DNA of 25,750 nt, from assembly GCA_964014485.1 (NCBI GenBank), contig CAXHAT010000114.1, positions 1 through 25,750 on the forward strand. The letters are read 5' to 3'. Under the pieces are notes generated by a model that was not told where the DNA came from, ran no database searches, and worked only from the letters and a program-made list of their open reading frames with translations. The position numbers and the translations under genes were made by a program. The DNA is from an uncultured Deferribacteres bacterium (GTDB lineage Bacteria; Zhuqueibacterota; Zhuqueibacteria; Zhuqueibacterales; Geothermadaptataceae). Below, piece after piece: positions 3,001 to 25,750 of this stretch; the first letter of the stretch is position 1; every line of letters starts with the position of its first letter.

Positions 3001-6000
3001 TTTTCGCGGATGAAGAAGGCGCTGGAAAGCAAATTTCAGAGCTTGCCGCGAAAAACGGCGACCGCGCTGTCGTCATTTCCGCCGGAGCGGAATTTGAGAT
3101 GAACGATGAGAATCACTTCGTCATCGATCCCGCGCAACCCGATGATTTTCGGCGAGTTTTCGAGCAAATTGAATCTTCCGCAACGCCGCCGATTTCGCAG
3201 GTGATTTACGGCTGGGCGTTGGAAGAGAACGGCGGGGATGGCTGTTCTCTGGAATCGTTGCAAAACACTCAGGCAAAAACCGGTGCCGGCTTGCTGCATA
3301 TTGCGCAGGCGATGATTCGCTCTGGCGCCGCGAAAATGCCGCGACTTTGGGTGTTGACGAACAGCGCGCAGGCTGTGCGCGATGACTCAAAACCATCGAC
3401 TCCTACGTCATTCCCGACTCTCTCATCTATGTCATTCCCGCAGAGGCGGGAATCTATGGGCCGTGCAAAACCACTGGATTCCCGCCTGCGCGGGAATGAC
3501 GTGGAGGAGAGTTACGAGACAGGTCTCGTCCATACGCCGTTGTGGGGATTCGCCAAAGTCATAGCGTTGGAGCACCCCGAATTGCATTGCACGCGCGTCG
3601 ATCTCGATTCGACGGCGGAAAATGGATTCGAAAATTTTCTGCGCGAAATCAACGCCGATTCGAAGGAAGACCAAATCGCGTTTCGCAACGACGAGCGGCT
3701 GGTTGCACGGTTGTCTCGGCATGAATTTCAAAAAAATGGCCAACCGGAATCGTTGGGAAACGCGCCGTCGGTTCGTTTGAAAATCGACAAACCCGGTCTG
3801 CTCGACACATTGAATTATGCACCAATTGAGCGCCGCGAACCGGACGCGTATGAAGTCGAAATTCGTGTCGCTACGACCGGTTTGAACTTTCGTGATGTGC
3901 TGAAAACGCTCGGCATGTATCCCGGTGGCGATGCGGAAATGCTGGGCGGCGAATGCGCAGGAATTGTAACGGCGGTCGGCAAAAATGTACAAAGTTTCCA
4001 GCCTGGCGACACAGTGACAGGCATTGCGACGGGCGCTTTTGCTTCGTTCGTGACGACGGACGCGAATCTGGTCGTTCGCAAACCGGACGCGCTTTCGTTT
4101 ACCGAAGCCGCAACCATTCCAAGCGCTTACATGACGGCCTGGTACTGTCTGCACACGCTCGGAAAAATCCAAAAAGGCGACCGTGTTTTGATTCACGCGG
4201 CGGCTGGCGGCGTCGGTCTGGCGGCGGTGAATATCGCCAAACAAGCAGGCGCGGAAATTTTCGGCACGGCGGGCAGCGATGAAAAACACGACTTCCTCAA
4301 ATCGCTTGGGGTGCATCATGTTATGAATTCTCGCACGCTCGATTTCGCCGAAGAAATTGAACAAATCACCAACGGCGAAGGCGTCGATCTCGTGCTGAAT
4401 TCGCTCAGCGACGATTTCATTCCAAAAACGCTCAGCGTTGTTAAAAACGGCGGGCGTTTCATCGAAATCGGTAGGCGCGGGATTTGGAGCGCGGAAGAAG
4501 CGCGCAAGGTCAAAAACCTCAGCGTCTACGAAATCGTCGATCTCGCCAAAGCTTCTGAAGAAGAGCCTGGGTTGATTAAATCAATTTTGGCCAAAGTGAT
4601 GCGCGAAGTTGAAGCGGGCGGTTTGAAACCGCTGCCGCATAAGACTTTCCCGGCGTCTGAGACCGAAGAAGCGTTCCGGTTTATGCAGCAGGCTCGGCAT
4701 ATTGGGAAAATTGTGGTCGAACATGACACGCAATCTGATCCAAACTTTTCCCTGCTAACCTCCACTACGTCATTCCCGCGCAGGCGGGAATCCAGTGGCG
4801 GTGCGAAAGTCCTGGATTCCCGCCTGCGCGGGAATGACAAGGCGGCGAGTAACGAGAATGACGTGGTGGATGGGGCGGAGGTTTTGATCCGCCACAACGC
4901 AACCTACTTCATCACCGGCGGGCTGGCTGGGCTGGGACTTCTGACCGCTGAATGGCTGGTCGAGCACGGCGCGCGACGTCTTTTGCTGATGGCGCGCAGC
5001 GATCCGAGTGAAATTGCGCGAGAAAAAATCGCGGCAAGGCGAGAACAAGGAGCGCAAATCGAAATTTTGCAAGGCGACATCTCGCAACCGGAAGACGTGG
5101 CGAAAGCGTTTGAAATCATATCCGAAAGAATGCCGCCGCTGAAAGGCGTTTTTCATTCGGCGGGCGTGCTGAACGACGGCGCGATTTTGCAGCAAAGTTG
5201 GGATCGTTTCGAGTACGTGCTTGCGCCAAAAGTCCACGGCGGCTGGCTGCTGCACCAGCACACAAAAAATCTCGATCTCGACCATTTTGTGCTTTATTCT
5301 TCCTACGGTTCGCTCATGGGCAATCGCGGCCAGGCAAACCACGCAGGCGCGAACATGTTTTTGGACATGCTGGCGCATCGTCGCCAGGGGTTGGGGCTAC
5401 CGGGATTGAGCATCAACTGGGGCGCGTGGTCGCAAATCGGCGCGGCGGCGGATCGCGGCGTGGATGCGCGCGTTTCAGGGCAGGGCGTGCGAGCGATTTC
5501 ACCGGAAAACGGGTTGCGCGCGTTGGAATACGCCATGCGTCAATCGAATCCGCAAATCGGCGTTGTGCCCATCGATTGGCGGGCGTGGTTCCGCCAGAAC
5601 TCCGATGCAAAAACCAGAATTTTTCTCGAAAAACTCCTTCCAGCGGAAGCCGAAAAAACGGCGCCGTCGAAAAAGCGCGAAGTGAAAATCCGCGAGCAAT
5701 TGGCGGATGCGGCTCCTGAGAAATCCGAGCAGATTCTGCTCGATTACGTTCACGACCAGGCGCGAAAAATCATGGGACTCGCGGCCAATCAGGGGGTGGA
5801 TGTAGAACAGCCGTTGCACGACATTGGCCTCGATTCACTCATGGCCGTCGAATTGCGCAACGCCATCGGCGGCGGGCTGGAACTGGACGGCGCGCTGCCC
5901 GCGACATTGCTGTTCGATTATCCGACCATTTCCGCGGTCGCAGCATTTCTCGCCGAGGAAGTTTTGCACTTAAACGGCAACGGCGCTATTGAAACTGATC

Positions 6001-6405: not shown

Positions 6406-9400
6406 TCTCCCGTTAAACGCGCCATCGTGGAATTGCGCGAAATGCGCCAGCGCGTCGATGAATTGGAGCGCGAAAAGCACGAACCCATCGCCATCGTCGG
6501 CATTGGCTGCCGCTACCCCGGCGGCGTGAAAAGCCCGGACGATTTTTGGAACCTGCTCGCCAACGGCGTGGACGCGATTTCCGAAATTCCCGCCGACCGT
6601 TGGGATATTGAACGACTCTATGATCCCGAAGGCAAATCCCCCGGCAAAATGTCCACCAAATTCGGCGGATTTCTCGACGACGTCGACCAATTCGACGCGG
6701 ATTTTTTCGGTGTATCACCGCGCGAAGCCGCCAGTCTCGATCCGCAGCAGCGGCTTTTGCTCGAAGTGAGCTGGGAAGCTTTGGAACATGCGGGACTTGC
6801 AAACGACAAGCTAAAAGGCGGCAAGACCGGCGTTTATTTCGGCGTCGGCGGTTTCGATTACAGCCAGCTCGAAGCGACGCAGGGCAGCATCGAAGAGATC
6901 GACGCTTACTTCGCGACCGGCGCGGCGCACAGTTGCGCTTCCGGGCGGATTTCCTATTTTCTGGGCTTGCAGGGTCCGAGTTTGTCGGTCGATACCGCCT
7001 GTTCGTCTTCACTCGTTGCAACGCATTTGGCGGCGAAAGCACTGCGCAGCAAGGAATGCAACATGGCGCTCGCGGGCGGAATCAGCATGATTCTCGCGCC
7101 GACCATCAACATCGGCCTCTCGAAAGCCAACATGATGGCGCCGGACGGTCGCTGCAAGACTTTTGACGAGAGCGCCGACGGCTTTGTGCGCTCGGAAGGT
7201 TGCGGGGTGATCGTACTCAAACGCCTTTCCGACGCGCTTGCTGATAACGACAGTATTCTCGCCGTCATACGCGGTTCGGCGATCAATCAGGACGGTCGCA
7301 GCAACGGACTGACCGCGCCAAACGGCCCGTCCCAGCGCCGTGTCATCCGTGACGCGCTCGTCGATGCAGAAGTTGATCCCGAAAATATTAGCTACGTCGA
7401 AACGCACGGCACCGGCACTGATCTCGGCGATCCCATTGAAATTCAAGCGCTTGGCAGCGTGATGCGCACGGAAAAAGGCGCCCATCGTTTGGCCGTCGGA
7501 TCGGTCAAAACGAACATCGGCCACGCGGAAGGCGCGGCGGGCGTCGCCGGGCTGATCAAAGTCGTGCTCGCCATGCAAAACCAAACGATTCCGCCGCACC
7601 TGCACCTCAAATCCCGCAATCCAAAAATCAACTGGAATGAACATTCCTTCGATATTCCAACGGAAAACACAGCCTGGGAGCCGATCAACGGCAAGCGTCT
7701 CGCCGGAGTCAGTTCCTTCGGCTTCAGCGGCACAAACGCGCATGTAATTTTGGAAGAACATGCCGATGCACGAAGTGCAGCGCCCAATTCCCATCCTGGG
7801 AGGGGTAAGGGGTGGGTAAAGCAAAGTTCCGAGCATTCAAAAACGTCTGAAGACATCCCCCTACCCCCCTTCGAAGGGGGAATGACTCGTGCGTCAAAGA
7901 CGCACTCGGACTCCCCCCTTCGAAGGGGGGCTGGGGGGGATGTAAATCACGCCGCCGTTCTTACCCTCTCCGCTAAACGCCCCGAAGCCCTGCGCGACCT
8001 CGCACAAAAACACGCCGAGCATCTCGAGGACAATCCTAACCTCGAACTCAACGACATTTGCGGTACAACCAGCACAGGACGCTTCAACTTCGACCACCGT
8101 CTCGCCGTTGTCGCCAAATCGACGCAGGATTTTCAAAAACAACTCACTGCGTATGCTGAAAACGCCGAGCACCGTGCGATCACCGGCAGCGTGACCAGCT
8201 TGCATCAGCCGAACATCGTTTTTCTCTTTACTGGGCAAGGCTCGCAATATTTCGGCATGGCGAAATCGCTGTACGAATCAGAGCCGGTTTTCAAAAACGC
8301 GCTGGATCGGTGTGATGAAAATTTGCGGGAGCATTTGGGCGACTCAATTCTGGATGTGATTTTTGATAAAAACGCTCTCGAAAACGTCATAGATTCCCGC
8401 CTGCGCGAGAATGACATAGTGGAAGGCGACGGGAATTCTCGTTCCCATGCTTTGCGTGGGAATGCAGCTCAGGATGCTTCGCGTCCAGTGACGACGGCAG
8501 ATAGCGCCGAGCAAGGATCAATTTCTGAAGGCGGGGCGCGTGATTTACCCACCCCTAACCCCTCCCAAGATGGGAATTCTTCGGACGCTTCGCGTCCGGC
8601 CATCGATCAAACCCGTTTCACCCAACCCTCCCTCTTCGCCGTCGAATACGCACTGGCGGAACTGTGGCAATCCTGGGGAATCAAACCGGCGGCGGTTATG
8701 GGGCACAGCGTCGGCGAGTACGTCGCGGCGACGGTCGCGGGCGCGATGACGCTGGAAGACGGCCTGAAATTGATCACGATGCGCGGGAAATTGATGCAGG
8801 AAAAAACCGAACCGGGCACGATGATCGCGGTTTTCGCCGAACTTGGCGAAGTCGAAAAACTAGTTGAAAATCATCAAGATTCGTTAGCAATCGCGGCGGT
8901 CAACGGGCCGCAAAATATCGTCGTTTCCGGCAAAACGGATGCGATTCAGGAAATCGTCAAAATCTGCGATGAGCGCGAGATCAAGCACAAAAAACTTGCC
9001 GTCTCGCGAGCGTTTCATTCGCCCACGATGGATCCGATTCTCGACGATTTTGAGAAAGCCGCCGCGAGCGTGACGCAAAATCCGCTCAAAACCCCGATGG
9101 TCTCGAACCTGACCGGAGAAACGCTGCAACCCGGCGAAACCCTCGACGCAAAATACTGGAGTGAGCACATCCGTCAGCCGGTGCAATTCGTGAAATCCAT
9201 GCAGGCGCTGTGGAACGACGGCCAGCGCGTCTTTCTGGAGATCGGCGCCAATCCTGTGCTGCTCGGCATGGCGCAGCGCTTCGCGGAAGGCGACGCGGCC
9301 AAGTCGGTCTGGCTGCCGTCCTTGCGAAAAGGCCGCGAGGACATGGAGCAAATGCTTGAAACTCTCGGCCAGCTTTATGTGCGCGGCGTGAAAATCGATT

Positions 9401-11169: not shown

Positions 11170-11209
11170 GTATAGATATTTTCTTGATCTAAAAACGAAA
11201 GGAAGAACT

Positions 11210-11884
11210 TTGGCAGAGCATCTAATACAAATGGATCAAGATGATAATTCGGAATATAAGAAGCTAGTGGATGAGCACAATAAGCTCATTATGAAGTATG
11301 ATAGCTTCATGACTGAACTCAGCGAAATCGATAGAATTCCACTATTTTTTCTTTTTGGATTAAAATCAAGACTGAAGAAATTCCTTGGTTATGAAAAAGA
11401 ACTTAAGGAAGAATTCATGAAATGGTATCAGAGGGCATCTAAGTTTGTCAATGAACCTACCTATAATATCCCACAATCTGCTCATGGCGGACTTACTTTT
11501 GTTCATTTTACTACTCTTATGGCCTATCGAATTTCAGATGTGAATACTTTTGTGACTTTGTTCTCTGAAAGTCTTGTTCAAACTAAAAACGCTTATGAAA
11601 ACAGAAAAAGTATGCTCATAGCGGTTGCTGGTATTATTATCTCAATCATACCTGCAATCTATTCTTTCTTTTTTGATAAAAGCTTCGATGAAATATTTCG
11701 GTCTTCTGATCTTAATTGTCAAGTTCAGGAAATCGCTACTCAACTTGACAGCATCTATGAGAACTTTCCGGAATTTGAAAAATTTGGTGTTCAGAATCAG
11801 ACAATCATTCTCCAATTTGAAGAACGTCTCAGAAAACTTGAGCAAGTGGATAGCCTGCTTTCGTTGACTGGCAAGAAGCCTTAG
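11210..11884 (+). CDS. Hypothetical protein with one predicted transmembrane helix; AT-rich, probably foreign
   Basis: 224-codon ORF with a TTG start preceded by AAGGAAG; hydrophobic stretch MLIAVAGIIISIIPAIYSFFF; visibly more AT-rich than the flanking PKS genes. No family recognised. Confidence 0.7.
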   Translation: MAEHLIQMDQDDNSEYKKLVDEHNKLIMKYDSFMTELSEIDRIPLFFLFGLKSRLKKFLGYEKELKEEFMKWYQRASKFVNEPTYNIPQSAHGGLTFVHFTTLMAYRISDVNTFVTLFSESLVQTKNAYENRKSMLIAVAGIIISIIPAIYSFFFDKSFDEIFRSSDLNCQVQEIATQLDSIYENFPEFEKFGVQNQTIILQFEERLRKLEQVDSLLSLTGKKP

Positions 11885-12082
11885 ATAATGCTCTTTCAAA
11901 CCAAAATTCAGACAAAAATTGCTCTGTTAGAAGAACAACTCGCTGATGCAGGCTGAAGATAGCGCTCCAAGCGTTTACAGTTGCTTCGGCTGTCCTGAGT
12001 ATTTACATTATCCGGCAGCAACTGTTTTGAGCGTCGCCAAATTCAAGGGCAGCCAAAAGGATTTACTATTTGGGTGATCGTG

Positions 12083-12752: not shown

Positions 12753-12766
12753 ATTATACGCAGAGG

Positions 12767-15900: not shown

Positions 15901-18900
15901 CGGCTCAACACGCCAACGCTGAATGACATTTTATTTGAATCTCAGATCAGTCTGGCGACCGCGCCGTTTGTCGCGGATCATGAAGTGCATGGCGCGATTG
16001 TGCTGCCGGGTGCAGCGTATTTTGAGATACTCGCCTCCGCCGCCGATCAGGTTTTTGGCAAGGGCGCTCACATAATCGAAGCCCTTGATTTGCGGGAAGC
16101 GTTGGTTTTGGATGAGAAAAGCCAGCGGACGGTGCAGGTTGTTTTTTCACCTGAAAAAGATGGTGAAATTGCGTCGAAGAACGGGGCGGCGGATGCAGCG
16201 CGGTCTCTGAAATTCCAGATTATTAGTTTTGAAAATGATCTGGACGAAGAAGCGCCAGAATGGACGATTCATGCGGCCGGGAAAATTCAGGAATCTTTAC
16301 AACACGTCATTCCCGCCCCGAATAAGTCGGGAGGAATCCAGAATGAGCAGCGCTCCTTAGATTCCCGCCTGCGCGGGAACGACGTGTCACTGGACGCGGA
16401 GCGTCCGAGTATGCATGACGACGGAGACCGTCGTCACGAGACGGACGAAGCGTCGAAGACGCGCGAAAGCTCCCCCCTTCGAAGGGGGGCTGGGGGGGAT
16501 GTAAACAAACGTTCTCATTCTTCTCCAACGCCGAAAAACATCCCCCTAACCCCCTTCGAAGGGGGAATGACTGGCGCGCCTTCGGCACGCTCGATGGATT
16601 CCTCCCGACTTATTCGGGACGGGAATGACGTGTTGGTAGGAATTCGTGAGTCGTTGACTCAGGAAGTTTCTCATGAAGTATTTTATGCAGACCTGCACGA
16701 ACGCGGGTTGAATTTCGGCGATTTGTTTCATGGCGTGCAGAAAGTCTGGCGTGCGGACGGGCAGGCGTTGGCGGAGATTCAATTGCCGGAAGTTTTGGCT
16801 GCGGAACAATCGCGCTACAAAATGCACCCGGTTTTGCTCGACGCTTGTCTGCAAATCATAGGAACGGCGACGCACGGCTGGGGCGGGGAAGATGATGCGA
16901 AGGACGTTTACATGCCGCTGGGGGCGGGACGGATTTCGATCTTCGAATCACCGCAAGGGACGACGCTTTTCAGTCACGCCGAGCTTGAGAGCGGCGATGC
17001 GACAGGCGGCGATACGATGTCCGCGACGGTCAAAATTTATGATGAGAACGGCGAGCCGGTTGCACTGGTTGAACGCTTGCAGTTGAAGCGAGTGACCGCC
17101 GATCAATTGCGTCAATCGATGCGGGCGAATTATGATGATTGGTTTTATCACGTTGACTGGGAAGAAAAGCCGCTGGCGGAAAAACCGACGGCGCGGCGGG
17201 TGGATTTCGTTCCGGAGTCGGCGAAGCTCGGGGAAATCATGCTGCCGGAATTGCAGAAGCTCACCGACGAATTCGGCATGCGGCGCTACGACGATTTGCT
17301 GCCGCTTTTGGATAAGCTTGGTTTTGCTTACATCGTTGAAGCTTTCAAATCGTGGGGATTCGAATTTTCCGAAGGGCAAAAAATTACCGCTGAAGATGCG
17401 GCGAAAAAATGCGGCATAATCGAGCAGCACCAGGGGCTTTTCGTGCGATTGCTGGAAATTCTTGCTGAAGAAAATATTTTGAACCGAGAAAATGATGGCT
17501 GGGTCGTTTGCGAAGCGCCGGAGATTGCCGCCCCGGAAACCTTGTTCAAAGAGATTGCTGAGGAATACAACGTCGAGCAACCGGAGTTGATTTTTATCCG
17601 ACGCGGCGGCGAGAAGTTGGCTGAAGTGCTGCGCGGCGAGTACGATCCGCTGCAAGTGCTTTTCCCCGGCGGTTCGCACGAGATTGCGGATCGACTCTAT
17701 CAAGAATCGCCGGGCGCGCGTGTTTACAACAGCGTGGCGAAGCGGGCGCTGGCGGAGGTGGTTGACAATCTACCGAAGGATCGGAAAATCCGCGTTCTGG
17801 AAGTCGGCGCAGGCACGGGCGGCACGACGTCATTCATTCTCGATGCTTTTCCGTCGGATCGGACAGAGTATGTTTTCACCGACGTCGGCGCGGCGTTTTT
17901 GCCGAAAGCGCGAGAGAAATTTGGCGAATATTCGTTCGTCGAGTACAAGGTTTTGGACATCGAACGCGACCCTTTGGCGCAGGGATTTGAAGCGAATTCT
18001 TTTGATCTGGTGATCTCGGCCAACTGCGTTCATGCGACGCGCGATTTGACTGAAACGCTGGCGCACATTCGCCAACTCATGGCGCCGTCGGGATTGCTCA
18101 TGCTTCTGGAAGGCATTCAGCCGCAGCGCTGGATCGATTTGACTTTTGGGCTGACGGACGGCTGGTGGCGATTCACAGACACGGATGTGCGCGAGAATTA
18201 TCCGTTGATTGGTCATCACGAGTGGTCTTCGTTATTTACGAAAATTGGGTTTGAAGACGTTCAGACGATTCCGGGCGAAGACGAAAACAGCCGGGCGCTT
18301 TTGCAGAACGCAATTCATGTGGCGCGTGCGCCGAAAGCGGCGTTTGCTTCAAATGAAGGTTTGTCAAAGGGCCGCTGGCTCATTTTTGCAAACAACGATG
18401 ATGCGGGAGAAAAGCTTGCCGGGCAATTGGAAAACGAGCGCGGCGAAGAAGCGGTCATTGTTTTTCCTGGTAATGAGTTTGAGCTTGAAAGCGACGGTCG
18501 ATTCAGCATCGATCCAGCCAACGCCGAGCATTATCAACGGCTGTTTGCCGAGGCGTTTGTCGAGCGAGAAATTGCGTGTGCCGGAGTCGTTCATTTGTGG
18601 GGACTGGACGCCGCCTCTTCCACGTCATTCCCGCGCAGGCGGGAATCTATGAGCGTGTTCCGAGAATTGGATTTCCGCCTGCGCGGGAATGACGTGGTTG
18701 AGAAAACTGAAAAAAACGTCTCATTAGCACCGGGCTTCAGCCCGGTGAAAAGCGGAAACCGCCCTCTCTTTATTCCGCCCCGCCGGCGGGGCGGAATAGA
18801 GGGGGAGAAGGCTCTGCACCGGAACCCCGCTCTAAAGAGCGGGGCTAATGAGAAAGAAGCCAATGTGATCGATTCTCAGGACTTAAGCAGTCGTAGTGTT

Positions 18901-21180
18901 TTGCATTTGGTACAAGCATTGGGAAGGGCTGATTTGGCGCCGCCGGTTTGGTTGGCGACGCGGCAGGCGCAGGGGGTGGTCTCGGACGATCCCGTTGATG
19001 GTTTTTCTGCCGCGACGCTTTGGGGAATGGGCAAGGTGATCACGATGGAGCATCCTGAGTTGCAGTGCGTGCGGCTTGATCTGGACGACGATTCGCCGGA
19101 AGCACAAGCGACGCAAATTTTTGCCGAAACCTGCGACGGCGATGACGAAAATCAAATCGCGTATCGCGACGGCAAACGTTTCTCGGCGCGATTGACGCGC
19201 ACGGATTTTTCAAAAACAATTCAAGCAAAAGAAGTACGTCCGGAAGACAATCCGGTGCAGCTCGTGGTCAAAACGCCGGGCATTTTGGACGATCTCACGT
19301 TCACGCCGCAGCAGCGCGTTTTTCCAAAACCCGATGAAGTCGAAATTCGCGTTTGTGCAACCGGGTTGAATTTCCGCGACGTTTTGAACGCTCTGGGGAT
19401 GCGGGACGACGATGATCCGCTGGGCGGCGAAGTGGCGGGGATCGTCACGCGCGTCGGCGAAAATGTGCGGGATTTGGACATTGGCGATGAAATTGTCGCC
19501 GTGACTTCGGGCGGATTCAGCACGTTCGTCAACGCTGATAAAACGCTGGTTTTGCAGAAGCCGGAAAATCTGAGTTTTGAAGACGCGGCGACCTTGCCGC
19601 TGGCGTTTTTGACGGCGCAATACGCGCTGTTTAATATTGGCAATTTGCAAAAAGGCGAACGCATTTTGATCCACGCAGCGGCTGGCGGCGTCGGCCTGGC
19701 GGCGGTGCAATTGGCGCAAAAAGCAGGCGCTGAGATTTTTGCTACGGCGGGAAATCCCGAAAAACGCGAGTTTCTAAAATCGCTTGGCGTGAAACACGTG
19801 ATGAATTCACGCACGCTCGATTTTGCCGAAGAAATTGTGCAAATCACCGGCGGCGAGGGCGTGGATGCGGTGTTGAATTCATTGACCGATGATTTTATCC
19901 CGAGAAGTCTGGAATTGCTGCGTGAGGACGGACGCTTCCTGGAAATCGGCAAAAAAGAAATTTGGGACGATGCGCGAGTCGCCGCAGTGAATTCGAGAGC
20001 GCATTATTTTGCCGCCGATTTGGCGGAGAAAATCATCACGGATCCAGCAGCGGTGCGGCCGATTTTTGTCGAGATTTTGGTCCGCCTCGGACGCAGCGAA
20101 TTGGCGCCGTTGAACAAACACATTTTTGCATTTGAAAAAGCGCCGGAGGCCTTCCGGTTTATGGCGCAAGCGCGGCATATGGGGAAGGTTGTGGTTTCGC
20201 AAGACATAGAGTTTTTGAACGAACTAAACCTTTCGGCTGAGTCATTCCCGCGCAGGCGGGAATCCAGTTCTCACGGCGCCCAAATAGATTCCCGCCTACG
20301 CGGGAATGACGTGTTGGGAGAGGCCGAGAATGATAAAAGCGGGACAGTTTCCGGTTTGGTGAAAAGTTCCGACACGTTTCGAACCGCCGCGACTTACCTC
20401 ATCACCGGCGGGATGAAGGGGATTGGCTTGTTGGTCGCGGAATGGATGGTTGAGAAGGGTGCGCGGCATTTGATTTTGACCGGACGGAGTGCGCCGGATG
20501 AATACGCCGAAGAAGTCATCGCAAAATTGGTCGAGCAGGGCGCTGAGATTCGCACGGTGCGCGGCGACGTTTCGGACGCTCAGCATGTTGCGGACGGGAT
20601 GGCTGTGATCGAGCACGAATTGCCGCCGCTGAAGGGTGTTTTTCACTCGGCGGGCGTGCTGGCGGACGGCGTGCTGTTGCAGCAGGATTGGGAACGCTAT
20701 CTCAAAGTTTACGGTGCGAAAGTGCAAGGCGCGTGGAATTTGCATCAATATACGCAAGCCTTTGATCTCGATTTTTTCGTGTTGTTTTCATCGATTTCCG
20801 GTTTGTTGGGATCGTCCGGCCAGAGCAACCACGCAGCGGCGAATGCGTTTATGGACGCGCTTTGTGCATTCCGGCGCGCGCGGAATTTGCCTGCGATGAG
20901 CATCAATTGGGGCGTGTGGTCGGAGATTGGCGCGGCGGCGCGCCACGGCGTGGATGCGCGCGTAACGATGCAGGGCATGCAAAGCTTTACACCGCAGCAA
21001 GGCCTCGATACGCTCGAAATCCTGATGAAAAACCAGCCCGTGCAGTGCGCAGTGATGCCGGTGCATTGGCCGAGACTTTTGCAGACTTTTGATCGGCCAA
21101 AAGAGCAAGCCTTTTTCGAAAGATTGGCGGCGGAATCGCTGCGGCAAACGGAGATTTCTGAAGAGCCGAAAAAGCGTTAA
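12934..21180 (+). CDS. Type I modular PKS (PKS-3): docking-KS-AT-DH-cMT-psiKR-ER-KR, ending at an apparently premature TAA before the ACP
   Basis: ATG 12934 gives MTRTTNTQQELSP, similar to the PKS-2 N-terminus. KS DTACSSS, HGTGT, NVGH; AT GHSVG, VSHAFHS; DH DHEVHGAIVLP, HPVLLDAC; MT LEVGAGTGG; ER LIHAAAGGVG; KR TGGMKGIG, AGVLAD. Confidence 0.96.
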   Translation: MTRTTNTQQELSPLKRAFLKIEELERKLKSAQDAAVHEPIAIIGMACRFPGGCDTPEKFWQLLRDGRDAVGDIPSERWDVDALYDPDPNAPGKIFTRRGAFLKNVDHFDPQFFGVSPREAMSLDPQQRLLLETAWEALENAGQAPDALKESLTGVFLAMCKTDYAELQLATNDPVFLDTYYASGNAYSTAAGRIAYILGLQGACLTVDTACSSSLVATHLACRSLRARESNLALVGGVNLVLSPNNTITFSKSSMLAADGRCKTFDASADGFVQGEGCAMIALKRLSDAQKDGDPIMAVIRGTAINQDGASSGLTAPNGSSQQAVINTALRDAGLQPRDVDYVETHGTGTSLGDPIEVQALGAALGKGRPSENPLLLGAVKSNVGHLEACAGLAGLFKLVLSLQNRQLPASLHFNKPNPFIPWQKLPVKVVTELSDWQAHDGKRRGGLSAFGFSGTNAHVIVEEYCDDTPVERAPSHPAQILTLSAFDKKALDAQVERFCTEFSPNRRDAFESGEIPKDTLKRELHTFGDICFSANTGRADLQHRIALQAKDFKELKNKLAELKNDELPDGVVRGVLESPDKPKLAFLFTGQSSQYAGMGRKLYETEPVFRQALDQCAAILRDELDAPFLEVVFDEDSEINSVFDEVGTSGKPTPKPSPEGNLDASRSGVIDQTAYTQPALFAIEYALAQLWLSWGIKPDALMGHSVGEYVAACVAGIFGLEDGLRLIAARGRLMQNLPQDGAMVAVFAPEEITRGELHGFEDRLSVAALNGPENTVISGEKGAIDEILKSFDKNEIKYKALTVSHAFHSPLMAPMLDEFEKIATGVKFLPPKIGLVSNLTGKIEPGKTFADPKYWRRHIRDAVQFLPSMQFLEAKGYRHFLEIGPHPTLSGMGARCVENSCEWLPSLRRGRDDFETILTAVQKLYVQGFNIDWDGFYQHEKHRKVRLPNYPFNRKPYWYTALSSGGQESAAANLSVVADKNVHPILGRRLNTPTLNDILFESQISLATAPFVADHEVHGAIVLPGAAYFEILASAADQVFGKGAHIIEALDLREALVLDEKSQRTVQVVFSPEKDGEIASKNGAADAARSLKFQIISFENDLDEEAPEWTIHAAGKIQESLQHVIPAPNKSGGIQNEQRSLDSRLRGNDVSLDAERPSMHDDGDRRHETDEASKTRESSPLRRGAGGDVNKRSHSSPTPKNIPLTPFEGGMTGAPSARSMDSSRLIRDGNDVLVGIRESLTQEVSHEVFYADLHERGLNFGDLFHGVQKVWRADGQALAEIQLPEVLAAEQSRYKMHPVLLDACLQIIGTATHGWGGEDDAKDVYMPLGAGRISIFESPQGTTLFSHAELESGDATGGDTMSATVKIYDENGEPVALVERLQLKRVTADQLRQSMRANYDDWFYHVDWEEKPLAEKPTARRVDFVPESAKLGEIMLPELQKLTDEFGMRRYDDLLPLLDKLGFAYIVEAFKSWGFEFSEGQKITAEDAAKKCGIIEQHQGLFVRLLEILAEENILNRENDGWVVCEAPEIAAPETLFKEIAEEYNVEQPELIFIRRGGEKLAEVLRGEYDPLQVLFPGGSHEIADRLYQESPGARVYNSVAKRALAEVVDNLPKDRKIRVLEVGAGTGGTTSFILDAFPSDRTEYVFTDVGAAFLPKAREKFGEYSFVEYKVLDIERDPLAQGFEANSFDLVISANCVHATRDLTETLAHIRQLMAPSGLLMLLEGIQPQRWIDLTFGLTDGWWRFTDTDVRENYPLIGHHEWSSLFTKIGFEDVQTIPGEDENSRALLQNAIHVARAPKAAFASNEGLSKGRWLIFANNDDAGEKLAGQLENERGEEAVIVFPGNEFELESDGRFSIDPANAEHYQRLFAEAFVEREIACAGVVHLWGLDAASSTSFPRRRESMSVFRELDFRLRGNDVVEKTEKNVSLAPGFSPVKSGNRPLFIPPRRRGGIEGEKALHRNPALKSGANEKEANVIDSQDLSSRSVLHLVQALGRADLAPPVWLATRQAQGVVSDDPVDGFSAATLWGMGKVITMEHPELQCVRLDLDDDSPEAQATQIFAETCDGDDENQIAYRDGKRFSARLTRTDFSKTIQAKEVRPEDNPVQLVVKTPGILDDLTFTPQQRVFPKPDEVEIRVCATGLNFRDVLNALGMRDDDDPLGGEVAGIVTRVGENVRDLDIGDEIVAVTSGGFSTFVNADKTLVLQKPENLSFEDAATLPLAFLTAQYALFNIGNLQKGERILIHAAAGGVGLAAVQLAQKAGAEIFATAGNPEKREFLKSLGVKHVMNSRTLDFAEEIVQITGGEGVDAVLNSLTDDFIPRSLELLREDGRFLEIGKKEIWDDARVAAVNSRAHYFAADLAEKIITDPAAVRPIFVEILVRLGRSELAPLNKHIFAFEKAPEAFRFMAQARHMGKVVVSQDIEFLNELNLSAESFPRRRESSSHGAQIDSRLRGNDVLGEAENDKSGTVSGLVKSSDTFRTAATYLITGGMKGIGLLVAEWMVEKGARHLILTGRSAPDEYAEEVIAKLVEQGAEIRTVRGDVSDAQHVADGMAVIEHELPPLKGVFHSAGVLADGVLLQQDWERYLKVYGAKVQGAWNLHQYTQAFDLDFFVLFSSISGLLGSSGQSNHAAANAFMDALCAFRRARNLPAMSINWGVWSEIGAAARHGVDARVTMQGMQSFTPQQGLDTLEILMKNQPVQCAVMPVHWPRLLQTFDRPKEQAFFERLAAESLRQTEISEEPKKR
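14432..14513. repeat. Family E doublet, in-frame in the PKS-3 KS-AT linker
   Basis: GTACGGAGTTCAGCCCGAACCGTCGGGATG ... ACACGCTAAAGCGTGAACTCCATAC; terminal inverted repeat GTACGGAGTTCA / TGAACTCCATAC. Confidence 0.82.
14889..14936. repeat. Family C element plus GGACGC hairpin, in-frame in the PKS-3 AT loop
   Basis: ACCCACCCCTAAACCCTCCCCGGAGGGGAATT then GGACGCTTCGCGTTC; homologous to 8547-8598. Confidence 0.88.
16300..16635. mobile_element. 336 bp nested MITE-like composite with 41 bp terminal inverted repeats, in-frame in the PKS-3 DH
   Basis: 16300-16340 and 16595-16635 are inverted repeats matching at 40/41. The interior holds a family A arm (16360-16383), family D (16392-16440) and a family B doublet (16470-16567). 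Mobility as a single unit is inferred. Confidence 0.8.
18624..18693. repeat. Family A palindromic doublet (70 bp), in-frame in the PKS-3 psiKR
   Basis: GTCATTCCCGCGCAGGCGGGAATC, 22 nt, then GATTTCCGCCTGCGCGGGAATGAC. Confidence 0.95.
18719..18853. repeat. Family F REPIN-like doublet (135 bp) with a central perfect 28 bp palindrome, in-frame in the PKS-3 psiKR
   Basis: TCTCATTAGCACCGGGCTTCAGCCCGGTG ... TATTCCGCCCCGCCGGCGGGGCGGAATA (18771-18798) ... CCCCGCTCTAAAGAGCGGGGCTAATGAGA. Confidence 0.88.
20241..20310. repeat. Family A palindromic doublet (70 bp), in-frame in the PKS-3 ER-KR linker
   Basis: GTCATTCCCGCGCAGGCGGGAATC, 22 nt, then GATTCCCGCCTACGCGGGAATGAC; same linker as the 4769 copy in PKS-1. 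Confidence 0.95.
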
Positions 21181-21597
21181 AAAAACATCCGCGAGCAATT
21201 AGAAAAAGCGACCCCGGCGCGGCGCAGAAAGATGCTGCAAGCTTTTGTCGAGCAAAAAGTGCTGAAAGTGCTGGTGCTGGACGACGATCACGAAATCGGC
21301 GAGAAGCAGCCGCTCACGGACATGGGGCTGGATTCGCTGATGGCGGTGGAATTGCGCAATCTGCTCGGCGCCGGACTCGCCTTGGAACGCGCCCTGCCCG
21401 CCACGCTGGTTTTCGACTATCCCACGACTTCGGCGATCACGCAATTTCTGGAAAAAGAGTTGTTTGGCGATACAAAGAAGGAAGCCGTTGACGAAGTCGC
21501 CACGAAAGAATCGTCCGGCGCGCTCGATATGCTGGAACAGCTCGAGTCTCTCTCCGACGACGAAGTTGATCAACTATTTTCTAAAGAATTGAAGTAG
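21181..21597 (+). CDS. ACP plus C-terminal docking region of PKS-3, in the same frame after the TAA (possible restart at ATG 21232)
   Basis: KNIREQLEKATPARRRKMLQAFV...GLDSLMAVELRN...FDYPT...LSDDEVDQLF aligns with PKS-1 VKIREQLADAAPEK...GLDSLMAVELRN. Confidence 0.9.
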   Translation, partial: KNIREQLEKATPARRRKMLQAFVEQKVLKVLVLDDDHEIGEKQPLTDMGLDSLMAVELRNLLGAGLALERALPATLVFDYPTTSAITQFLEKELFGDTKKEAVDEVATKESSGALDMLEQLESLSDDEVDQLFSKELK

Positions 21598-21681: not shown

Positions 21682-21829
21682 CACCCCTTCGGGGTTTGAA
21701 AATTGTAGAACCAGATTCTTTCTATAATCATATCATCCCTTCGGGATTGTCGCCTCAGAAAATCCCGAAGGGATGACATGATTATAGAAAATAGTGGACG
21801 TTGTCATGTGGTCAAACCCCGAAGGGGTG
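21682..21829. repeat. Intergenic 148 bp REPIN/MITE-like long hairpin (family G)
   Basis: Outer inverted repeat CACCCCTTCGGGGTTTGA / TCAAACCCCGAAGGGGTG (18/18); inner inverted repeat 21719-21748 / 21761-21790 (29/30); each arm carries a CCC-TTC-GGG mini-hairpin. Confidence 0.9.
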
Positions 21830-21914: not shown

Positions 21915-24900
21915 ATGAGCCAATTGCTGGAACGATTACAGAATTTATCTCCGAAACGTCTGGCGCTGCTGGTGATGGAACTGCAGAAGCGTTTGGATAC
22001 GCAGGAAGAGACGCGACGCGAGCCGATTGCGATCATCGGGTTGGGCTGCCGTTTCCCCGGCGAGGCGGATTCGCCCGAAGCGTACTGGAGTCTCCTCAAA
22101 AACGGCGTGGACGCCATCTCAGAAGTTCCCGCCGACCGCTGGGACGCGGAAGCGCTCTACGATCCCGACCCGCAAGCGCCTGGAAAAATGTACACCAAAT
22201 GGGGCGGGTTCATCAAAAACGTCGATCAGTTCGATCCCTACTTTTTTGGCGTCTCGCCGCGCGAAGCGGTGACGATGGATCCCCAGCAACGGCTCCTGCT
22301 CGAAGTCACCTGGGAAACGCTGGAGCACGCCGGGCACGCGCCGTCGTCTTTGGAAGGCTCAAAAACAGGCGTGTTCGTCGGCATTGCCAGCGGCGATTAC
22401 CGCAATTGGGTCGCGAAAATGGGCGTGGAAAATTACGACACCTACGTTTCGACCGGCGGCTCCCACGCGATTGCTTCCGGACGGCTGTCGTACGTTCTCG
22501 GCTTGCAAGGCCCCAGCGTTTCGCTCGATACGGCGTGCTCGTCCTCGCTCACCGCGATTCATTTGGCGTGCCTGAGTCTGCGCGCGGGCGATTGTAATAT
22601 GGCCTTGGCGGGCGGCGTGAATCTCATGCTTTCGCCGGAAATTTCCATCATGCTTTCTCGCGCGACGATGCTCTCGCCGGACGGCCGCTGCAAAACTTTC
22701 GACGCTTCGGCGGACGGCTTTACCCGCGCGGAAGGCTGCGGCATGATCGCGCTAAAACGTCTCTCGGACGCACAGCGCGATGGTGACAATATTCTGGCCT
22801 GCATTCTCGGTTCCGCCGTCAATCAGGACGGGCGTAGCAGCGGAATCACCGCGCCGAACGGGCCGTCGCAGGAGAACGTCATTCGCCAGGCGCTGAAAGA
22901 TGCGGACATTTCGCCGGAAATGGTGAGCTATATTGAAGCGCACGGCACGGGCACTTCACTCGGCGATCCGATTGAAGTGCAAGCATTGGGGAGCGTTTTT
23001 GGCAAGAGCCATTCGCAGGATGATCCGTTGCTAATCGGATCGGTTAAGACAAACTTTGGACATCTCGAAGCCGCCGCAGGAGTTGCCGGATTGGCGAAGG
23101 TCATTCTTGCACTTCAAAATCGAGAAATTCCCAAGCATCTACATTTTAATGAGGCGAGTCCGTACATCCCGTGGGCGGAGGTTCCGGCGAAAGTCGCGGC
23201 AGAGCACCAAGACTGGGTTGAGAGAAACGGTCGGCGAATTGCCGGGCTCAGCTCTTTCGGATTTAGCGGGACGAATGGACACATTTTGCTTGAGGCTGCG
23301 CCTCGCGGAGAACGGAAGACGGAGACGGAAGGACGCAGGATTCTGCATTTGCTGTGTTTGTCGGCGCAGAGCGAGGGAGCGTTGGATGCGCGTTCCGGAC
23401 AAATGGCGGAGTTTTTTGATGAGAATGACGCAGGCGGAAACACGCTAAAGCGTGAACTCCGTACTTTTGCCGATATTTGTTTTACGGCCAACGCGGGGCG
23501 GTCGCATTTTAATCAGCGGTTTGCCGTGATTGCCGAGAACACGGATTCGGCAAGAGAAAAACTGGCGGCTTGGCGGCAGGGCGGGGAAGATGTCGCTGTT
23601 TTTTCCGGGAAAGCGACCGGTGCAAAAAGCAAAGACGTTGCGTTTCTTTTTACCGGGCAAGGCGCGCAATACGTTGGCATGGCGAAAGAACTTTACGAGA
23701 CGCAGCCGGTTTTTCGGGATGCGTTGGATCGGTGTGCGGAGATTTTGAAGGCGCATTTGGACAAGCCGCTGATTGAAATCATTTTTGACGAACAAGCTCT
23801 CGAAACAGTCATTCCCGTCCCGAATAAGTCGGGAGGAATCCAGAATGAGCACCGCCCTATAGATTCCCGCCTGCGCGGGAATGACAGGGTGGGAGACGGC
23901 GGAAATGTCGCTCGTTCTCGTGACGACGGTCTCCGTCGTCACGCACACAAGGACGCTCCGCGTCCTGTCACTAGCCTCATTAACCAAACCGTGTACACCC
24001 AACCCGCGCTTTTCGCTGTCGAGTATGCATTGGCGCAGTTGTGGACGTCGTGGGGCGTGCGACCGACGGTGGTGATGGGGCACAGCGTCGGCGAGTATGT
24101 CGCGGCGTGTGTGGCCGGGGCTTTTAGTCTCGAAGACGGCTTGAAATTGATCGCCAAACGGGGGCGATTGATGCAATCGCTGCCGGAAAATGCCGGCGGC
24201 ATGGTCGCGGTTTTCGCCGAAGAAAAAACGGTGTGCGAGTTTCTGAACGGGTTTGAAAAAAGCGTCGATATCGCGGCGTTGAACGGGCCGGAAAACACGG
24301 TGATTTCAGGCGAAAACGGCGCTCTTGATGAAATCCTGCAAAAGCTTGATGCAGCGGGCCTGAAGTACAAAGCATTGACCGTTTCGCACGCTTTTCATTC
24401 ACCGCAAATGGAGCCGGTTCTCGAAGAATTTGGAAAAGCGGCGGCGAGCGTTGAATTTCACGAGCCAGAGATCGATTTGATTTCGAACGTCACCGGCCAG
24501 CCCGCGACATTTGAAGAGATCAGCGATCCGAAATACTGGCAAAAACACATTCGTCAGCCGGTGCGCTTTGCCGACTCGATTCGCACGATTCAAAAGCAAA
24601 AAGTGAACATTTTTCTGGAAATCGGCCCACACCCGACGCTTTTGGGCATGGCGCAGCGTTGCATTGAAGAAGAAAAAATGGTCTGGCTGCCGTCCTTGCG
24701 CAAAGGCCGCGACGATTGGCGGCAATTGCTCGAAAGCGCGGCGAAGCTCTACATTGCCGGCCTTGATCTTGACTGGGCGAGCTTTGAAAAACCACACAAT
24801 CGCCGCCGCGTGCCGCTGCCGACGTATCCGTTCGAGCGCCAGCGCTACTGGATCGATCCGCCAAAAGCGAGCGCGGTTTCTTTCGCGGCAGAAGATGCGG

Positions 24901-25750
24901 AAGACGCGCGTTTTTCACTGCTTGGCAAACGGCTCAACTTGCCGATCACGACCTTTCAAACCGAATTGAGCAGGGCAAAACTGGCGCTGATGGACGAGCA
25001 TCGAACTCACGACGTTTCGGTTGTTCCCGGCGCGGTTTTTCTGGAATTGGCGTTGTCGGCGGCGATGGAGTCGCAAAGCTCCCCCCTTCGAAGGGGGGCT
25101 GGGGGGGATGTAAAAGAACGCTCTCACTTGGCGACAACATCCGGAAACATCCCCCTAACCCCCTTCAAAGGGGGAACAATCTGGTCGCTTCGCGATATGA
25201 TGATCGATCAGGCCATCGTGCTGCCGGACGAGGGCCTGAAGACGATTCAAGTCATCGTCGATGAAGACCGCTTCAAAGTTTTTGGTCTGGAAGAATCTGA
25301 ATCAGAGAAGCCGGTTTGGCGCAAGCACGCTTCAGGACAATTTTTGTTTGAGCAAATTGATGTTTCTTCCGAGTTTTCCATCCAGGAAACGAAAAAACGC
25401 TGCGAAATCACGGATGTCGCCACAATCCAAAATCGCGTCAGAGCACGCGGCATTCGCGTTTCTGAAGATTCATTGAAGCCGGAAACGATTTGGAGGCGTG
25501 ACGGGGAAGCGTTGTGCCTTTTGAATTTGCCGAAGCATTTTTCAGAAAAATCAGACGATTTTGCGATGCACCCCGCCGTTATTGACGCGGGTTTGCAATT
25601 GCTCGAAGCGGCGCTGCCGGAGGACGGTTCCGTGCTCGCGGCTGACGAAGCTTACATGATGATCGGTTTGGAAAAAGCCGCACTTTTCGCGCAGCCCGCG
25701 GGACAAATTTTCATTCACGGCGAACTCTATTTGCCGGAGAAATGCAACGC
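21915..25750 (+). CDS. Type I modular PKS (PKS-4), 3'-partial: docking-KS-AT-DH...
   Basis: Absent from the ORF track because it runs off the window. AAAGGA RBS at 21902; MSQLLERLQNLSPKRLALL...EPIAIIGLGCRFPG; DTACSSS, EAHGTGT, NFGH; GQGAQ, GHSVG, VSHAFHS; DH EHRTHDVSVVPG and HPAVIDAGLQ. Segments translated by hand all fall in one frame. Confidence 0.95.
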   Translation, partial: MSQLLERLQNLSPKRLALLVMELQKRLDTQEETRREPIAIIGLGCRFPGEADSPEAYWSLLKNGVDAISEVPADRWDAEALYDPDPQAPGKMYTKWGGFIKNVDQFDPYFFGVSPREAVTMDPQQRLLLEVTWETLEHAGHAPSSLEGSKTGVFVGIASGDYRNWVAKMGVENYDTYVSTGGSHAIASGRLSYVLGLQGPSVSLDTACSSSLTAIHLACLSLRAGDCNMALAGGVNLMLSPEISIMLSRATMLSPDGRCKTFDASADGFTRAEGCGMIALKRLSDAQRDGDNILACILGSAVNQDGRSSGITAPNGPSQENVIRQALKDADISPEMVSYIEAHGTGTSLGDPIEVQALGSVFGKSHSQDDPLLIGSVKTNFGHLEAAAGVAGLAKVILALQNREIPKHLHFNEASPYIPWAEVPAKVAAEHQDWVERNGRRIAGLSSFGFSGTNGHILLEAAPRGERKTETEGRRILHLLCLSAQSEGALDARSGQMAEFFDENDAGGNTLKRELRTFADICFTANAGRSHFNQRFAVIAENTDSAREKLAAWRQGGEDVAVFSGKATGAKSKDVAFLFTGQGAQYVGMAKELYETQPVFRDALDRCAEILKAHLDKPLIEIIFDEQALETVIPVPNKSGGIQNEHRPIDSRLRGNDRVGDGGNVARSRDDGLRRHAHKDAPRPVTSLINQTVYTQPALFAVEYALAQLWTSWGVRPTVVMGHSVGEYVAACVAGAFSLEDGLKLIAKRGRLMQSLPENAGGMVAVFAEEKTVCEFLNGFEKSVDIAALNGPENTVISGENGALDEILQKLDAAGLKYKALTVSHAFHSPQMEPVLEEFGKAAASVEFHEPEIDLISNVTGQPATFEEISDPKYWQKHIRQPVRFADSIRTIQKQKVNIFLEIGPHPTLLGMAQRCIEEEKMVWLPSLRKGRDDWRQLLESAAKLYIAGLDLDWASFEKPHNRRRVPLPTYPFERQRYWIDPPKASAVSFAAEDAEDARFSLLGKRLNLPITTFQTELSRAKLALMDEHRTHDVSVVPGAVFLELALSAAMESQSSPLRRGAGGDVKERSHLATTSGNIPLTPFKGGTIWSLRDMMIDQAIVLPDEGLKTIQVIVDEDRFKVFGLEESESEKPVWRKHASGQFLFEQIDVSSEFSIQETKKRCEITDVATIQNRVRARGIRVSEDSLKPETIWRRDGEALCLLNLPKHFSEKSDDFAMHPAVIDAGLQLLEAALPEDGSVLAADEAYMMIGLEKAALFAQPAGQIFIHGELYLPEKCN
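23440..23464. repeat. Single family E arm, in-frame in the PKS-4 KS-AT linker
   Basis: ACACGCTAAAGCGTGAACTCCGTAC, 24/25 identical to 14489-14513; translated TLKRELRT. Confidence 0.85.
23808..23965. repeat. Composite in-frame cluster in the PKS-4 AT loop: nested family A doublet (23808-23885) plus family D (23917-23965)
   Basis: GTCATTCCCGTCCCGAATAAGTCGGGAGGAATC...GATTCCCGCCTGCGCGGGAATGAC; then CTCGTGACGACGGTCTCCGTCGTCACGCA-CACAA-GGACGCTCCGCGTCC. Confidence 0.93.
25079..25176. repeat. Family B doublet, in-frame in the PKS-4 DH
   Basis: CTCCCCCCTTCGAAGGGGGGCTGGGGGGGATGTAAA ... ACATCCCCCTAACCCCCTTCAAAGGGGGAA; same layout and spacer length as 16470-16567. Confidence 0.93.

Follow-up and report, generated by a model that had tools for sequence, protein, structure and literature searches.

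The window analysed here is the entire 25,750-nt contig C114 of an uncultured bacterium, taken from a genome bin of 465 contigs, 8.40 Mb and 50% GC which is 97% complete by marker genes. All public sequencing runs found to contain it are labelled marine metagenome. The window carries four large open reading frames (ORFs), all of which encode modular type I polyketide synthase (PKS) proteins according to Pfam, and within them ten in-frame inserts consist of dispersed palindromic repeats. Judged from the sequence, these are likely to be intact PKS assembly-line genes whose loops and linkers were colonised by dispersed GC-rich hairpin repeats, mainly a CGTC-tagged repetitive extragenic palindrome (REP) of the NTS/dRS3 type. 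The four genes, delimited by ORF, Pfam and motif analysis, are distributed as follows:

P1, 3..6086, + strand: PKS gene of 2028 codons, AT-DH-MT-ER-KR-ACP, 5' end cut by the contig
P2, 6373..11166, + strand: PKS gene of 1598 codons, KS-AT-MT-ACP
P3, 12931..21180, + strand: PKS gene of 2749 codons, KS-AT-DH-MT-ER-KR
P4, 21915..25748, + strand: PKS gene of 1278 codons, KS-AT-DH..., 3' end cut by the contig

The motif patterns used were those generally known for PKS catalytic domains. They are intact in every module (KS Cys and two His, AT GHSVG and HAFH or RAFH, DH HxxxG/DxxxxP), and the nucleotide-binding motifs of MT, ER and KR and the ACP GLDSL are likewise kept. In P1 this concerns GHSVG, the DH His, MT, ER, KR and the ACP GLDSL.

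In-frame inserts of the window

The repeats were assigned to families lettered A to G. Family A is an inverted doublet of two 24-nt hairpin arms with a spacer of 19-23 nt; full copies start at 3431, 4769, 18624 and 20241, and single arms at 8392, 16352 and 23862. In the variant named family D, the hairpin of the A arm is enlarged. A D arm stands at doublet spacing from a normal A arm in P3 (16305-16383) and in the AT loop of two genes, P4 and a PKS on contig C101 (C101c). Family B shares the GTCATTCCC tag with family A and forms pairs at 7851-7946, ~16466-16575 and 25079-25160. C (units at 7786, 8541 and 14889), E, F and G are additional small palindrome families. The inserts, for which no strand is assigned, are listed below with their RNA folding energies and z-scores against shuffles; copies are those found outside megasynthases.

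Insert 1, 3405..3527: P1, between pseudo-KR and ER; inverted A doublet (core 3431-3500) and an outer partial arm (3405-3417); read as SFPQRRES..DSRLRGND; 119 copies; -71.1 kcal/mol, z -8.7
Insert 2, 4760..4864: P1, ER-KR linker; A doublet 4769-4838 and a tail with a third partial arm; read as SFPRRRES..DSRLRGND..NEND; 219 copies; -67.8 kcal/mol, z -8.8
Insert 3, 7783..7946: P2, start of the KS-AT linker; C unit 7786-7823, a unique stretch, then inverted B pair 7851-7946 read as IPLPPFEGG..SPLRRGAGGDV (B pair -70 kcal/mol, z -8.8)
Insert 4, 8374..8604: P2, variable AT loop; single A arm 8392-8415 and tail, a 17-locus family at ~8434-8487, C unit 8541-8578, F hairpin at ~8584-8598
Insert 5, 14886..14945: P3, same AT loop as insert 4; C unit 14889-14923 and an F-like hairpin (PTPKPSPEGN LDASRS)
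Insert 6, 16300..16635: P3, loop between the two DH halves; nest of 336 nt whose outer D arms (16300-16340 and 16595-16635; 41 nt, 98% complementary) enclose an A arm (16352), F and E hairpins and a B doublet (~16466-16575); 345-nt stretch 16296-16640, -210.1 kcal/mol, z -14.8
Insert 7, 18615..18855: P3, pseudo-KR region; A doublet 18624-18693 (A part -66.7 kcal/mol, z -13.6), G hairpin 18729-18748, two local palindromes
Insert 8, 20232..20335: P3, ER-KR linker, at the alignment position of insert 2; A doublet 20241-20310 and tail
Insert 9, 23808..23971: P4, AT loop; D arm 23808-23842 (35/35 nt match to the complement of the P3 arm 16595-16629), A arm 23862-23885, E/F block inverted relative to P3
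Insert 10, 25079..25160: P4, loop of the DH N-terminal half; B doublet read as SPLRRGAGGDV..IPLTPFKGG

The four A doublets fold at -53 to -71 kcal/mol (z -5.7 to -13.6), and the inserts are predicted to be very stable if present as RNA. A preliminary description of this DNA had counted about 12 insertion sites, none of which broke the frame. Ten of them stand, several being wider than described (the insert at 18615 covers about 240 nt), and the frame is unbroken at every one, in ORFs of 2028, 1598, 2749 and 1278 codons. The recurring peptides SFPRRRES..DSRLRGND, SPLRRGAGGDV, IPLxPFEGG and PTPxPS stand as well. The peptide TLKREL does not, nor do the sites at 14432 and 23440 from which it had been drawn. 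The region 14420-14470 around the first of them (14432..14449, + strand) matches only itself in the genome with blastn-short; the second (23440-23466) matches megasynthase ORFs only, with no match once those are excluded as subjects. Both align as conserved, ordinary KS-AT linker sequence. The two local palindromes of insert 7 (18768-18801 and 18825-18846) were also rejected as families, with 1 and 2 genome copies by pattern.

The position of the inserts in the proteins was examined by alignment. The closest non-self PKS homologues in the protein collection are 33-55% identical. Both P2 inserts are absent from 10/10 aligned homologues, and their sites (start of the KS-AT linker, one AT loop) are of variable length across homologues. 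Paralogue alignment places the others in the loop between the DH halves, the loop of the DH N-terminal half, the pseudo-KR region and the ER-KR linker. By these alignments the inserts are confined to positions whose length varies among homologues, and the frames are kept. In an AlphaFold2 model of the P2 AT domain, built from a shallow alignment of 7 AT domains of this genome, residues 69-145 (8374-8604, 77 residues) have a predicted local distance difference test score (pLDDT) below 50, and most 10-residue blocks elsewhere score 87-97; for at least one insert, a disordered loop is thus predicted, the rest of the AT fold being confident. Outside the PKS genes, a GT4 glycosyltransferase on contig C2 contains a 55-residue stretch with an A doublet that is missing in a 40-49% identical orthologue from a genome of the same family, which on this alignment is a true empty site for a non-PKS host. 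A PKS of Nostoc (protein P0115) carries its own repetitive insertion, rich in Gly and Arg (GSRGAGGQGGRGAGEQ...), at the same post-KS linker position, and hints that repeat-derived inserts may occur at this linker in other phyla too.

Repeat families, genomic distribution and reading frame

Family A was compared with known repeats. Positions 4768-4795 read CGTCATTCCCGCGCAGGCGGGAATCCAG, and the family fits letter for letter the NTS consensus CGTCATTCCCGCGMAVGCGGGAATCYRG, which passages of PMC11893778 define in Neisseria as a superset of dRS3. It also has the features by which CGTC-tagged REPs are recognised, namely a CGTC-tagged palindrome of 20-40 bp, mostly located outside long ORFs and often present as an inverted dimer. 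The likeness to Neisseria dRS3/NTS and CGTC-tagged repeats that had been proposed at first is therefore confirmed by consensus fit. The exact A 24-mer was found in at least 121 stretches of other species' genomes; Neisseria lactamica, N. mucosa, Azospirillum, Duganella, Sphingomonas, planctomycetes, Bacteroidota, candidate phyla radiation bacteria and one Nanoarchaeota bin are among the matches listed. Such identity of a 24-nt arm across many phyla is striking.

In the present genome we identified 259 A hairpins on 135 contigs, which were grouped into 192 elements. Allowing at most one mismatch, the A 24-mer occurs 251 times, versus 0 for the reversed control; of 30 related genomes, 27 have no occurrence and the other three have 1, 1 and 14 (G016, one of the three, and another relative, G023, are unpublished genomes). 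With the strict pattern 67/192 groups are doublets, and most "single" groups have a slightly mutated second arm. Counts by pattern are given below for megasynthase ORFs, i.e. those for PKS and nonribosomal peptide synthetases (NRPS), and for the genome.

Family A: 28 sites in megasynthase ORFs, 259 in the genome
Family B: 12 sites in megasynthase ORFs, 28 in the genome
Family C: 3 sites in megasynthase ORFs, 9 in the genome
Family D: 5 sites in megasynthase ORFs, 5 in the genome
Family E: 2 sites in megasynthase ORFs, 3 in the genome
Family F: 4 sites in megasynthase ORFs, 19 in the genome
Family G: 1 site in megasynthase ORFs, 60 in the genome
A3 (AT-richer hairpin): 0 sites in megasynthase ORFs, 59 in the genome
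A4 (AT-richer hairpin): 0 sites in megasynthase ORFs, 76 in the genome

The megasynthase excess differs from family to family. Counts of the blastn type give, elsewhere in the genome, 17-22 loci for B, 9-12 for C, 9-12 for E/F and 17 for the stretch 8440-8540; G has about 60 to 81 genome copies depending on the method, and D has 6 loci, on PKS contigs only. The first estimate of at least six families is upheld by these genome-wide copies of A (with its variant D), B, C, E, F, G and the 17-locus family, and the motifs do occur elsewhere, A hairpins being mostly located outside long ORFs. There the A copies belong to a small number of subfamilies, whose spacers are identical and which have additional conserved flanks; within ORFs, only the core is present, with no extra flanks.

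From 60 to 62 of the 192 A groups lie less than 400 nt from a contig end, so that A elements break the assembly. The 130 inner groups were considered separately: 26 of them (20%) are inside ORFs of at least 600 nt, versus 63% of random positions, and 16 are inside ORFs of at least 3 kb, versus 11% of random positions. The megasynthase set comprises 18 ORFs of at least 1.9 kb (90,681 nt, 1.08% of the genome) and the control set 933 other ORFs of that length (2.57 Mb). Megasynthase ORFs contain 17/192 A groups and control ORFs 5, a 96-fold difference in density (Poisson P ~4e-28); a uniform spread would place 2.07 groups in the megasynthase ORFs (P ~1e-10). This tendency extends to dispersed short repeats in general (at least 3 copies outside megasynthases), found in 16/18 megasynthase ORFs as 40 segments covering 2.7% of their length, versus 0.63% of the length of control ORFs, where many are located at ORF ends.

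Outside the window, Pfam assigns 8 of the A hosts to PKS or PKS-NRPS; the 11 other host ORFs encode a C25 peptidase, a NACHT-FGE protein, an M14 peptidase, a PSCyt/PSD1 protein, an SSF transporter, HlyD, a C-methyltransferase, the GT4 glycosyltransferase, a TIR-Lcl protein, an NTP transferase and one protein without family. Family A is in frame in at least 9 unrelated non-PKS genes. The NTP_transf_3 gene on contig C41 was dropped as an in-frame case: its homologues align from residue 174 onward only, so that the element is probably located upstream of the true start.

The reading frame of the inserts is particularly constrained. Inside ORFs the downstream A arm reads DSRLRGND in 28/28 copies (20 in megasynthases, 8 in other genes), and a second frame of this arm (IPACAGMT) is also open. 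The upstream arm reads SFPRRRES in 14 cases, VIPAQAGI in 7 and HSRAGGN in 1. When large proteins of other genomes were searched for SFPRRRES..DSRLRGND with P1 residues 1586-1628, 6 candidates were obtained, none of which scored. Spacers were classed as frame-preserving when the unit, with one base added per end, is a multiple of three; this is the case for 10/14 megasynthase doublets, 3/5 doublets of other ORFs and 19/99 elsewhere (megasynthases versus the rest, Fisher P 1.5e-4). We also considered that A might be pre-adapted to coding, and rejected it: the core has 3.15 open frames out of 6, versus 3.01 for random 72-mers, and when 35 nt of flank is included on either side, copies located outside megasynthase ORFs have 1.0, versus 1.8 for random 142-mers. 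The ORF copies are a filtered subset, with frame-preserving spacers and one hydrophilic reading of the downstream arm. From this and from the intact catalytic motifs, selection has clearly acted to keep the frames intact, as had been suspected from the window.

Two regions between the genes were noted in addition. The P2-P3 gap (11170-12930) is AT-rich (39-47% GC) and contains a 224-codon ORF (11210-11884) without Pfam family. About 125 nt upstream of the P4 start, 21719-21790 is an inverted repeat with 33-nt arms, 94% complementary and 6 nt apart, containing ATCCC-TTC-GGGAT hairpins; this hairpin occurs at 12 sites on 9 contigs.

Origin of the inserts and rival explanations

The following course of events would account for these data. 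The units may have entered the genes as discrete DNA insertions, and the survivors would be only those that kept the frame and encoded a tolerable loop. Permissive loops would then have gathered more elements, giving rise to nests, and module paralogy or gene conversion would have spread some inserts across PKS modules. The partner acting in trans would most likely be a nuclease of the Ssn type, a GIY-YIG enzyme bracketed by A hairpins and acting on single-stranded hairpin DNA, rather than a RAYT; it would move, homogenise or only cut the repeats. Parts of PMC11893778 (Chenal et al. 2025) report that small GIY-YIG nucleases, named Ssn, bind NTS-like repeats in single-stranded form and cut them, and that Ssn genes are typically bracketed by such repeats. 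The genome contains four small GIY-YIG paralogues (~95 residues):

C343:147-434: 95 residues; PF01541, 63 bits; A hairpins at 73-92 and ~559-590
C229:3593-3880: 78% identical to the C343 gene; A-related hairpin doublets on both sides
C156, ~9858-10130: flanked by its own GTCAT-tagged hairpin type
C86, ~29800-30057: flanked by its own GTCAT-tagged hairpin type

The hairpin types flanking the C156 and C86 genes have 59 and 76 genome copies, none of which is in megasynthase ORFs. This arrangement, in which a GTCAT-tagged hairpin type of its own brackets each of the four paralogues, suggests that several Ssn/repeat pairs may coexist in one genome. A GIY-YIG homologue (E <=1e-10) is present in 19/30 relatives, including G016 and G023. 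The closest homologues of the C343 gene among the 30 are in G018 (61% identity, and a partial copy at 74%), which is the only relative rich in A-like hairpins; the partial copy is located 26 nt from one of them. NCBIfam matches of the C343 protein are weak and of GIY-YIG type, and a PDB sequence search gave only weak GIY-YIG matches (UPF0213, UvrC), no Ssn entry being matched. In N. lactamica, the repeat does not flank the small GIY-YIG gene. Adapter-like sequence, which we take to be a transposase-library adapter, is present at C343:1-46, i.e. at the end next to the Ssn-like gene, and in the last ~30 nt of C36; because of it these ends of C343 and C36 are not genomic.

Several observations weigh against insertion followed by filtering with an Ssn-type partner. 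The Ssn-like assignment of the C343 gene is based on domain, size and flanking hairpins; a search with its protein found no homologue in two Neisseria genomes, and the Azospirillum homologue (58% identity) is not flanked by the hairpin. Among the PKS homologues of 33-55% identity no orthologous empty site was found for any insert, so that "insertion" into PKS genes relies on distant homologues and paralogues, there being no filled/empty pair at any PKS site. Neither a target-site duplication nor defined element ends could be established, the single empty site lying in the 40-49% identical orthologue. The spacers of PKS doublets are unique, their nearest neighbour being at a median edit distance of 6, versus 2 elsewhere, and on this comparison the PKS copies are outside the recently amplified subfamilies of the genome. 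Because some inserts are common to the same loop of paralogous modules, part of the enrichment is inherited and the 17 PKS copies do not count as independent events. The cluster may moreover be partly decaying, because an in-frame TAA (21178-21180, the P3 stop) precedes the P3 ACP, which resumes in the same frame at 21181-21597 with its GLDSL and C-terminal tail. This TAA could be a nonsense codon and the start of decay, a sequencing error, or the sign of a KR/ACP split gene; an internal ATG is located near 21229, downstream of it, and no repeat is associated with it. Finally, the public reads amount to contigs of ~5-fold depth that break at the repeats; they come from a single study (three runs), which is probably where the bin originated, and no RNA run is listed among those that contain the window.

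A rather improbable alternative, though the best placed of those considered, is that a few ancient insertions were multiplied by module duplication or gene conversion, the PKS excess reflecting paralogy and not repeated insertion. Shared positions speak for it. P4 and C101c carry the same D+A doublet in the same AT loop; P2 has only the A arm at that spot, where P2 and P3 share C plus F, and the loop's right edge carries an F hairpin in P2, P3 and P4. P1 and P3 have A doublets at an equal position of the ER-KR linker. Family D is exclusive to megasynthase ORFs (5/5 sites), and PKS spacers are unique, while 38/104 doublets elsewhere have an identical twin. The active insertion into PKS genes inferred in the preliminary description is weakened on the same two grounds, namely spacers unlike those of recently amplified copies and inserts common to paralogous modules. 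What argues against mere multiplication is first the placement of other families: the B pair is found at three non-homologous positions (KS-AT linker, DH inner loop, DH N-terminal loop), family D is found both in a DH loop and in AT loops, with a 35-nt perfect match between the D arms of the P3 DH loop and the P4 AT loop, and the E/F block has opposite orientations in P3 and P4. In addition, element DNA is far more alike than flanking synonymous sites: between P4 and C101c, third-codon identity is 0.87 in the element versus 0.27-0.53 in the AT flanks, so the shared element is, by this measure, younger or more constrained than its host gene. As far as these alignments indicate, either the elements are still mobile or being copied from one PKS site to another, or a DNA-level process holds the arms constant. 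The in-frame A copies of unrelated non-PKS genes, one with an empty site, are also at odds with a purely paralogous origin.

Somewhat less probable still is that the hairpins are kept because they are useful, as translational pause sites, RNA regulators, or portable homology and Ssn cleavage sites for recombination. NTS hairpins would then be preferentially kept or homogenised in megasynthase linkers because they act, which we regard as doubtful. If they act as Ssn-cut sites, identical homology of 24-70 nt at domain boundaries would drive the shuffling of domains and modules; if they act as mRNA hairpins, ribosomes would pause between domains. The density of A groups is 0.19 per kb in megasynthase ORFs, versus ~0.03 per kb outside long ORFs (104 groups over 37% of the genome), a value that is uncertain because ORFs were taken from stop to stop and not from gene calls and because about one third of the elements are at contig ends; random insertion followed by a filter that lets only a minority of insertions through does not readily account for this difference. 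Arms are near-perfect in PKS copies, with 0.79 mismatches per 48 nt (2.19 in the others, which include a variant subfamily), and spacers are diverged. The structures are very stable (-53 to -210 kcal/mol), and several are located exactly at domain boundaries. Usefulness keeps its small share of probability because the density in PKS ORFs is at least that outside long ORFs, and because arms stay near-perfect while spacers and host synonymous sites are scrambled. However, no sign of recent inter-module recombination is seen at the elements, identity profiles being flat and low on both sides; the abundant A3 and A4 have no copy in megasynthases and G only one; and the core doublet has about as many open frames as random sequence. 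The single candidate recombinant joint is weakly supported: a contig of run X2 joins the A elements at 18624 and 20241 (18649 to 20283), which would remove the ER region, with a side of 26 nt and a depth of 3. This joint is of recombinant type and is probably a repeat-induced assembly path.

Mobilisation by RAYT, the Y1 transposase that moves REPINs in Pseudomonas and E. coli, is improbable here. The inverted-doublet architecture resembles that of REPINs, and the genome has 7 Y1_Tnp matches, two of them at contig ends where flanking repeats were possibly lost in assembly. None of the 7 (0/7) has an A hairpin within 1.5 kb, however, the tag is CGTC and not GTAG, and the gene bracketed by hairpins is of the GIY-YIG type; CGTC REPs are moreover reported, in the relevant parts of PMC3733652, without a dedicated transposase. 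The RAYT or IS200-type genes that the preliminary description expected next to the motifs thus give way to an Ssn-like GIY-YIG candidate.

That the inserts are artefacts of a short-read metagenome bin is very improbable: the bin is fragmented, a third of the A groups lie near contig ends, some contig ends bear adapter remnants and public contigs break at repeats with alternative joints, but each insert keeps a frame of 1,300 to 2,750 codons with the expected domain order on both sides, independent contigs of the three runs bridge unique flank and insert (7581-7919, 8228-8422, 15620-16346), and random misjoins would not pick one frame 28 times out of 28. No joint precisely removing an insert was found in the contigs of these three DNA runs.

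Significance and relation to known repeat systems

If insertion and filtering are the correct explanation, the inserts amount to a natural insertion scan of places where working PKS modules appear to accept 20 to 112 extra residues, which is of interest for PKS engineering. These places are one loop of AT and two of DH, the pseudo-KR region, and two linkers, ER-KR and the beginning of KS-AT. For repeat biology, the locus would link Ssn/NTS hairpins with palindromes read inside genes under a strict frame filter, and one gene class can carry elements at about 100 times the density of other long genes. In genome mining, such inserts inflate or distort the predicted domain boundaries of megasynthases and are to be recognised as such, not taken for novel domains.

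Rickettsia palindromic elements (RPE) are, according to what Ogata et al., as cited in PMC3733652 and PMC10969869, are said to have described, selfish DNA inserted in frame in genes that stay functional; the units reportedly measure 100 to 150 bp and the added peptides lie outside catalytic cores. They had been proposed as the precedent for the present inserts, and rightly so in view of the in-frame insertion, the intact genes and the positions outside the conserved core; the comparison concerns the mode of insertion alone. The host here is free-living, with a large genome of 8.4 Mb, in contrast to a reduced intracellular one, and the hairpin doublets are shorter. Miniature inverted-repeat transposable elements (MITE) are recognised by terminal inverted repeats, a target-site duplication and a related parent that bears a transposase; the elements of our genome are palindromic throughout, and no parent insertion sequence was identified.

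REPINs, which are associated with RAYT, consist of two REP hairpins in inverted orientation, the arms being conserved and the spacer variable. Family A has the same build; it differs by its tag, CGTC instead of GTAG, and by the fact that none of the 7 Y1_Tnp matches is flanked by family A within 1.5 kb.

CGTC REPs are described in parts of PMC3733652 (Di Nocera, De Gregorio and Rocco 2013) as mostly intergenic, often dimeric and sometimes intragenic. According to the same passages, a minority of the GTAG/CGTC REPs are inserted in frame within genes, where dimers or clusters of them encode 20 to 82 residues, and their reported hosts are mainly DNA replication and repair genes and RNA-related genes. 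The shared features are short tagged palindromes, inverted dimers and a minority of copies in frame within genes. The differences are the hosts, here PKS/NRPS megasynthases (~96-fold), the multi-family nests of up to 336 nt and the exclusive reading frame. Passages of PMC3733652 also indicate that in-frame palindromes are already published for Rickettsia and, as GTAG/CGTC REPs, for several species. The initial statement that no case had been described in PKS thus holds in part: a full-text literature search found no paper placing such repeats inside PKS or NRPS genes, while intragenic REPs as such are described.

The likeness to the NTS/SRM repeats of Ssn nucleases includes the consensus fit, the hundreds of copies, the small GIY-YIG gene bracketed by the repeat (the NTS-ssnA-NTS layout) and the three further small GIY-YIG paralogues, each with its own flanking hairpin type. 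By contrast, the repeats here are, from sequence, located inside genes and concentrated in megasynthases; the searched text of PMC11893778 contains neither "intragenic" nor "open reading", and its two "coding" passages do not concern repeats within coding sequences. The host is an uncultured marine bacterium, whereas the one treated in those passages is a host-associated proteobacterium. Intragenic REP and RPE, the repeat itself and its likely partner nuclease are thus known from published work. What appears to be new is the class of host genes, the roughly hundred-fold concentration in them, the nesting of several families, the exclusive reading frame and a probable link to an Ssn-type rather than a RAYT-type partner.

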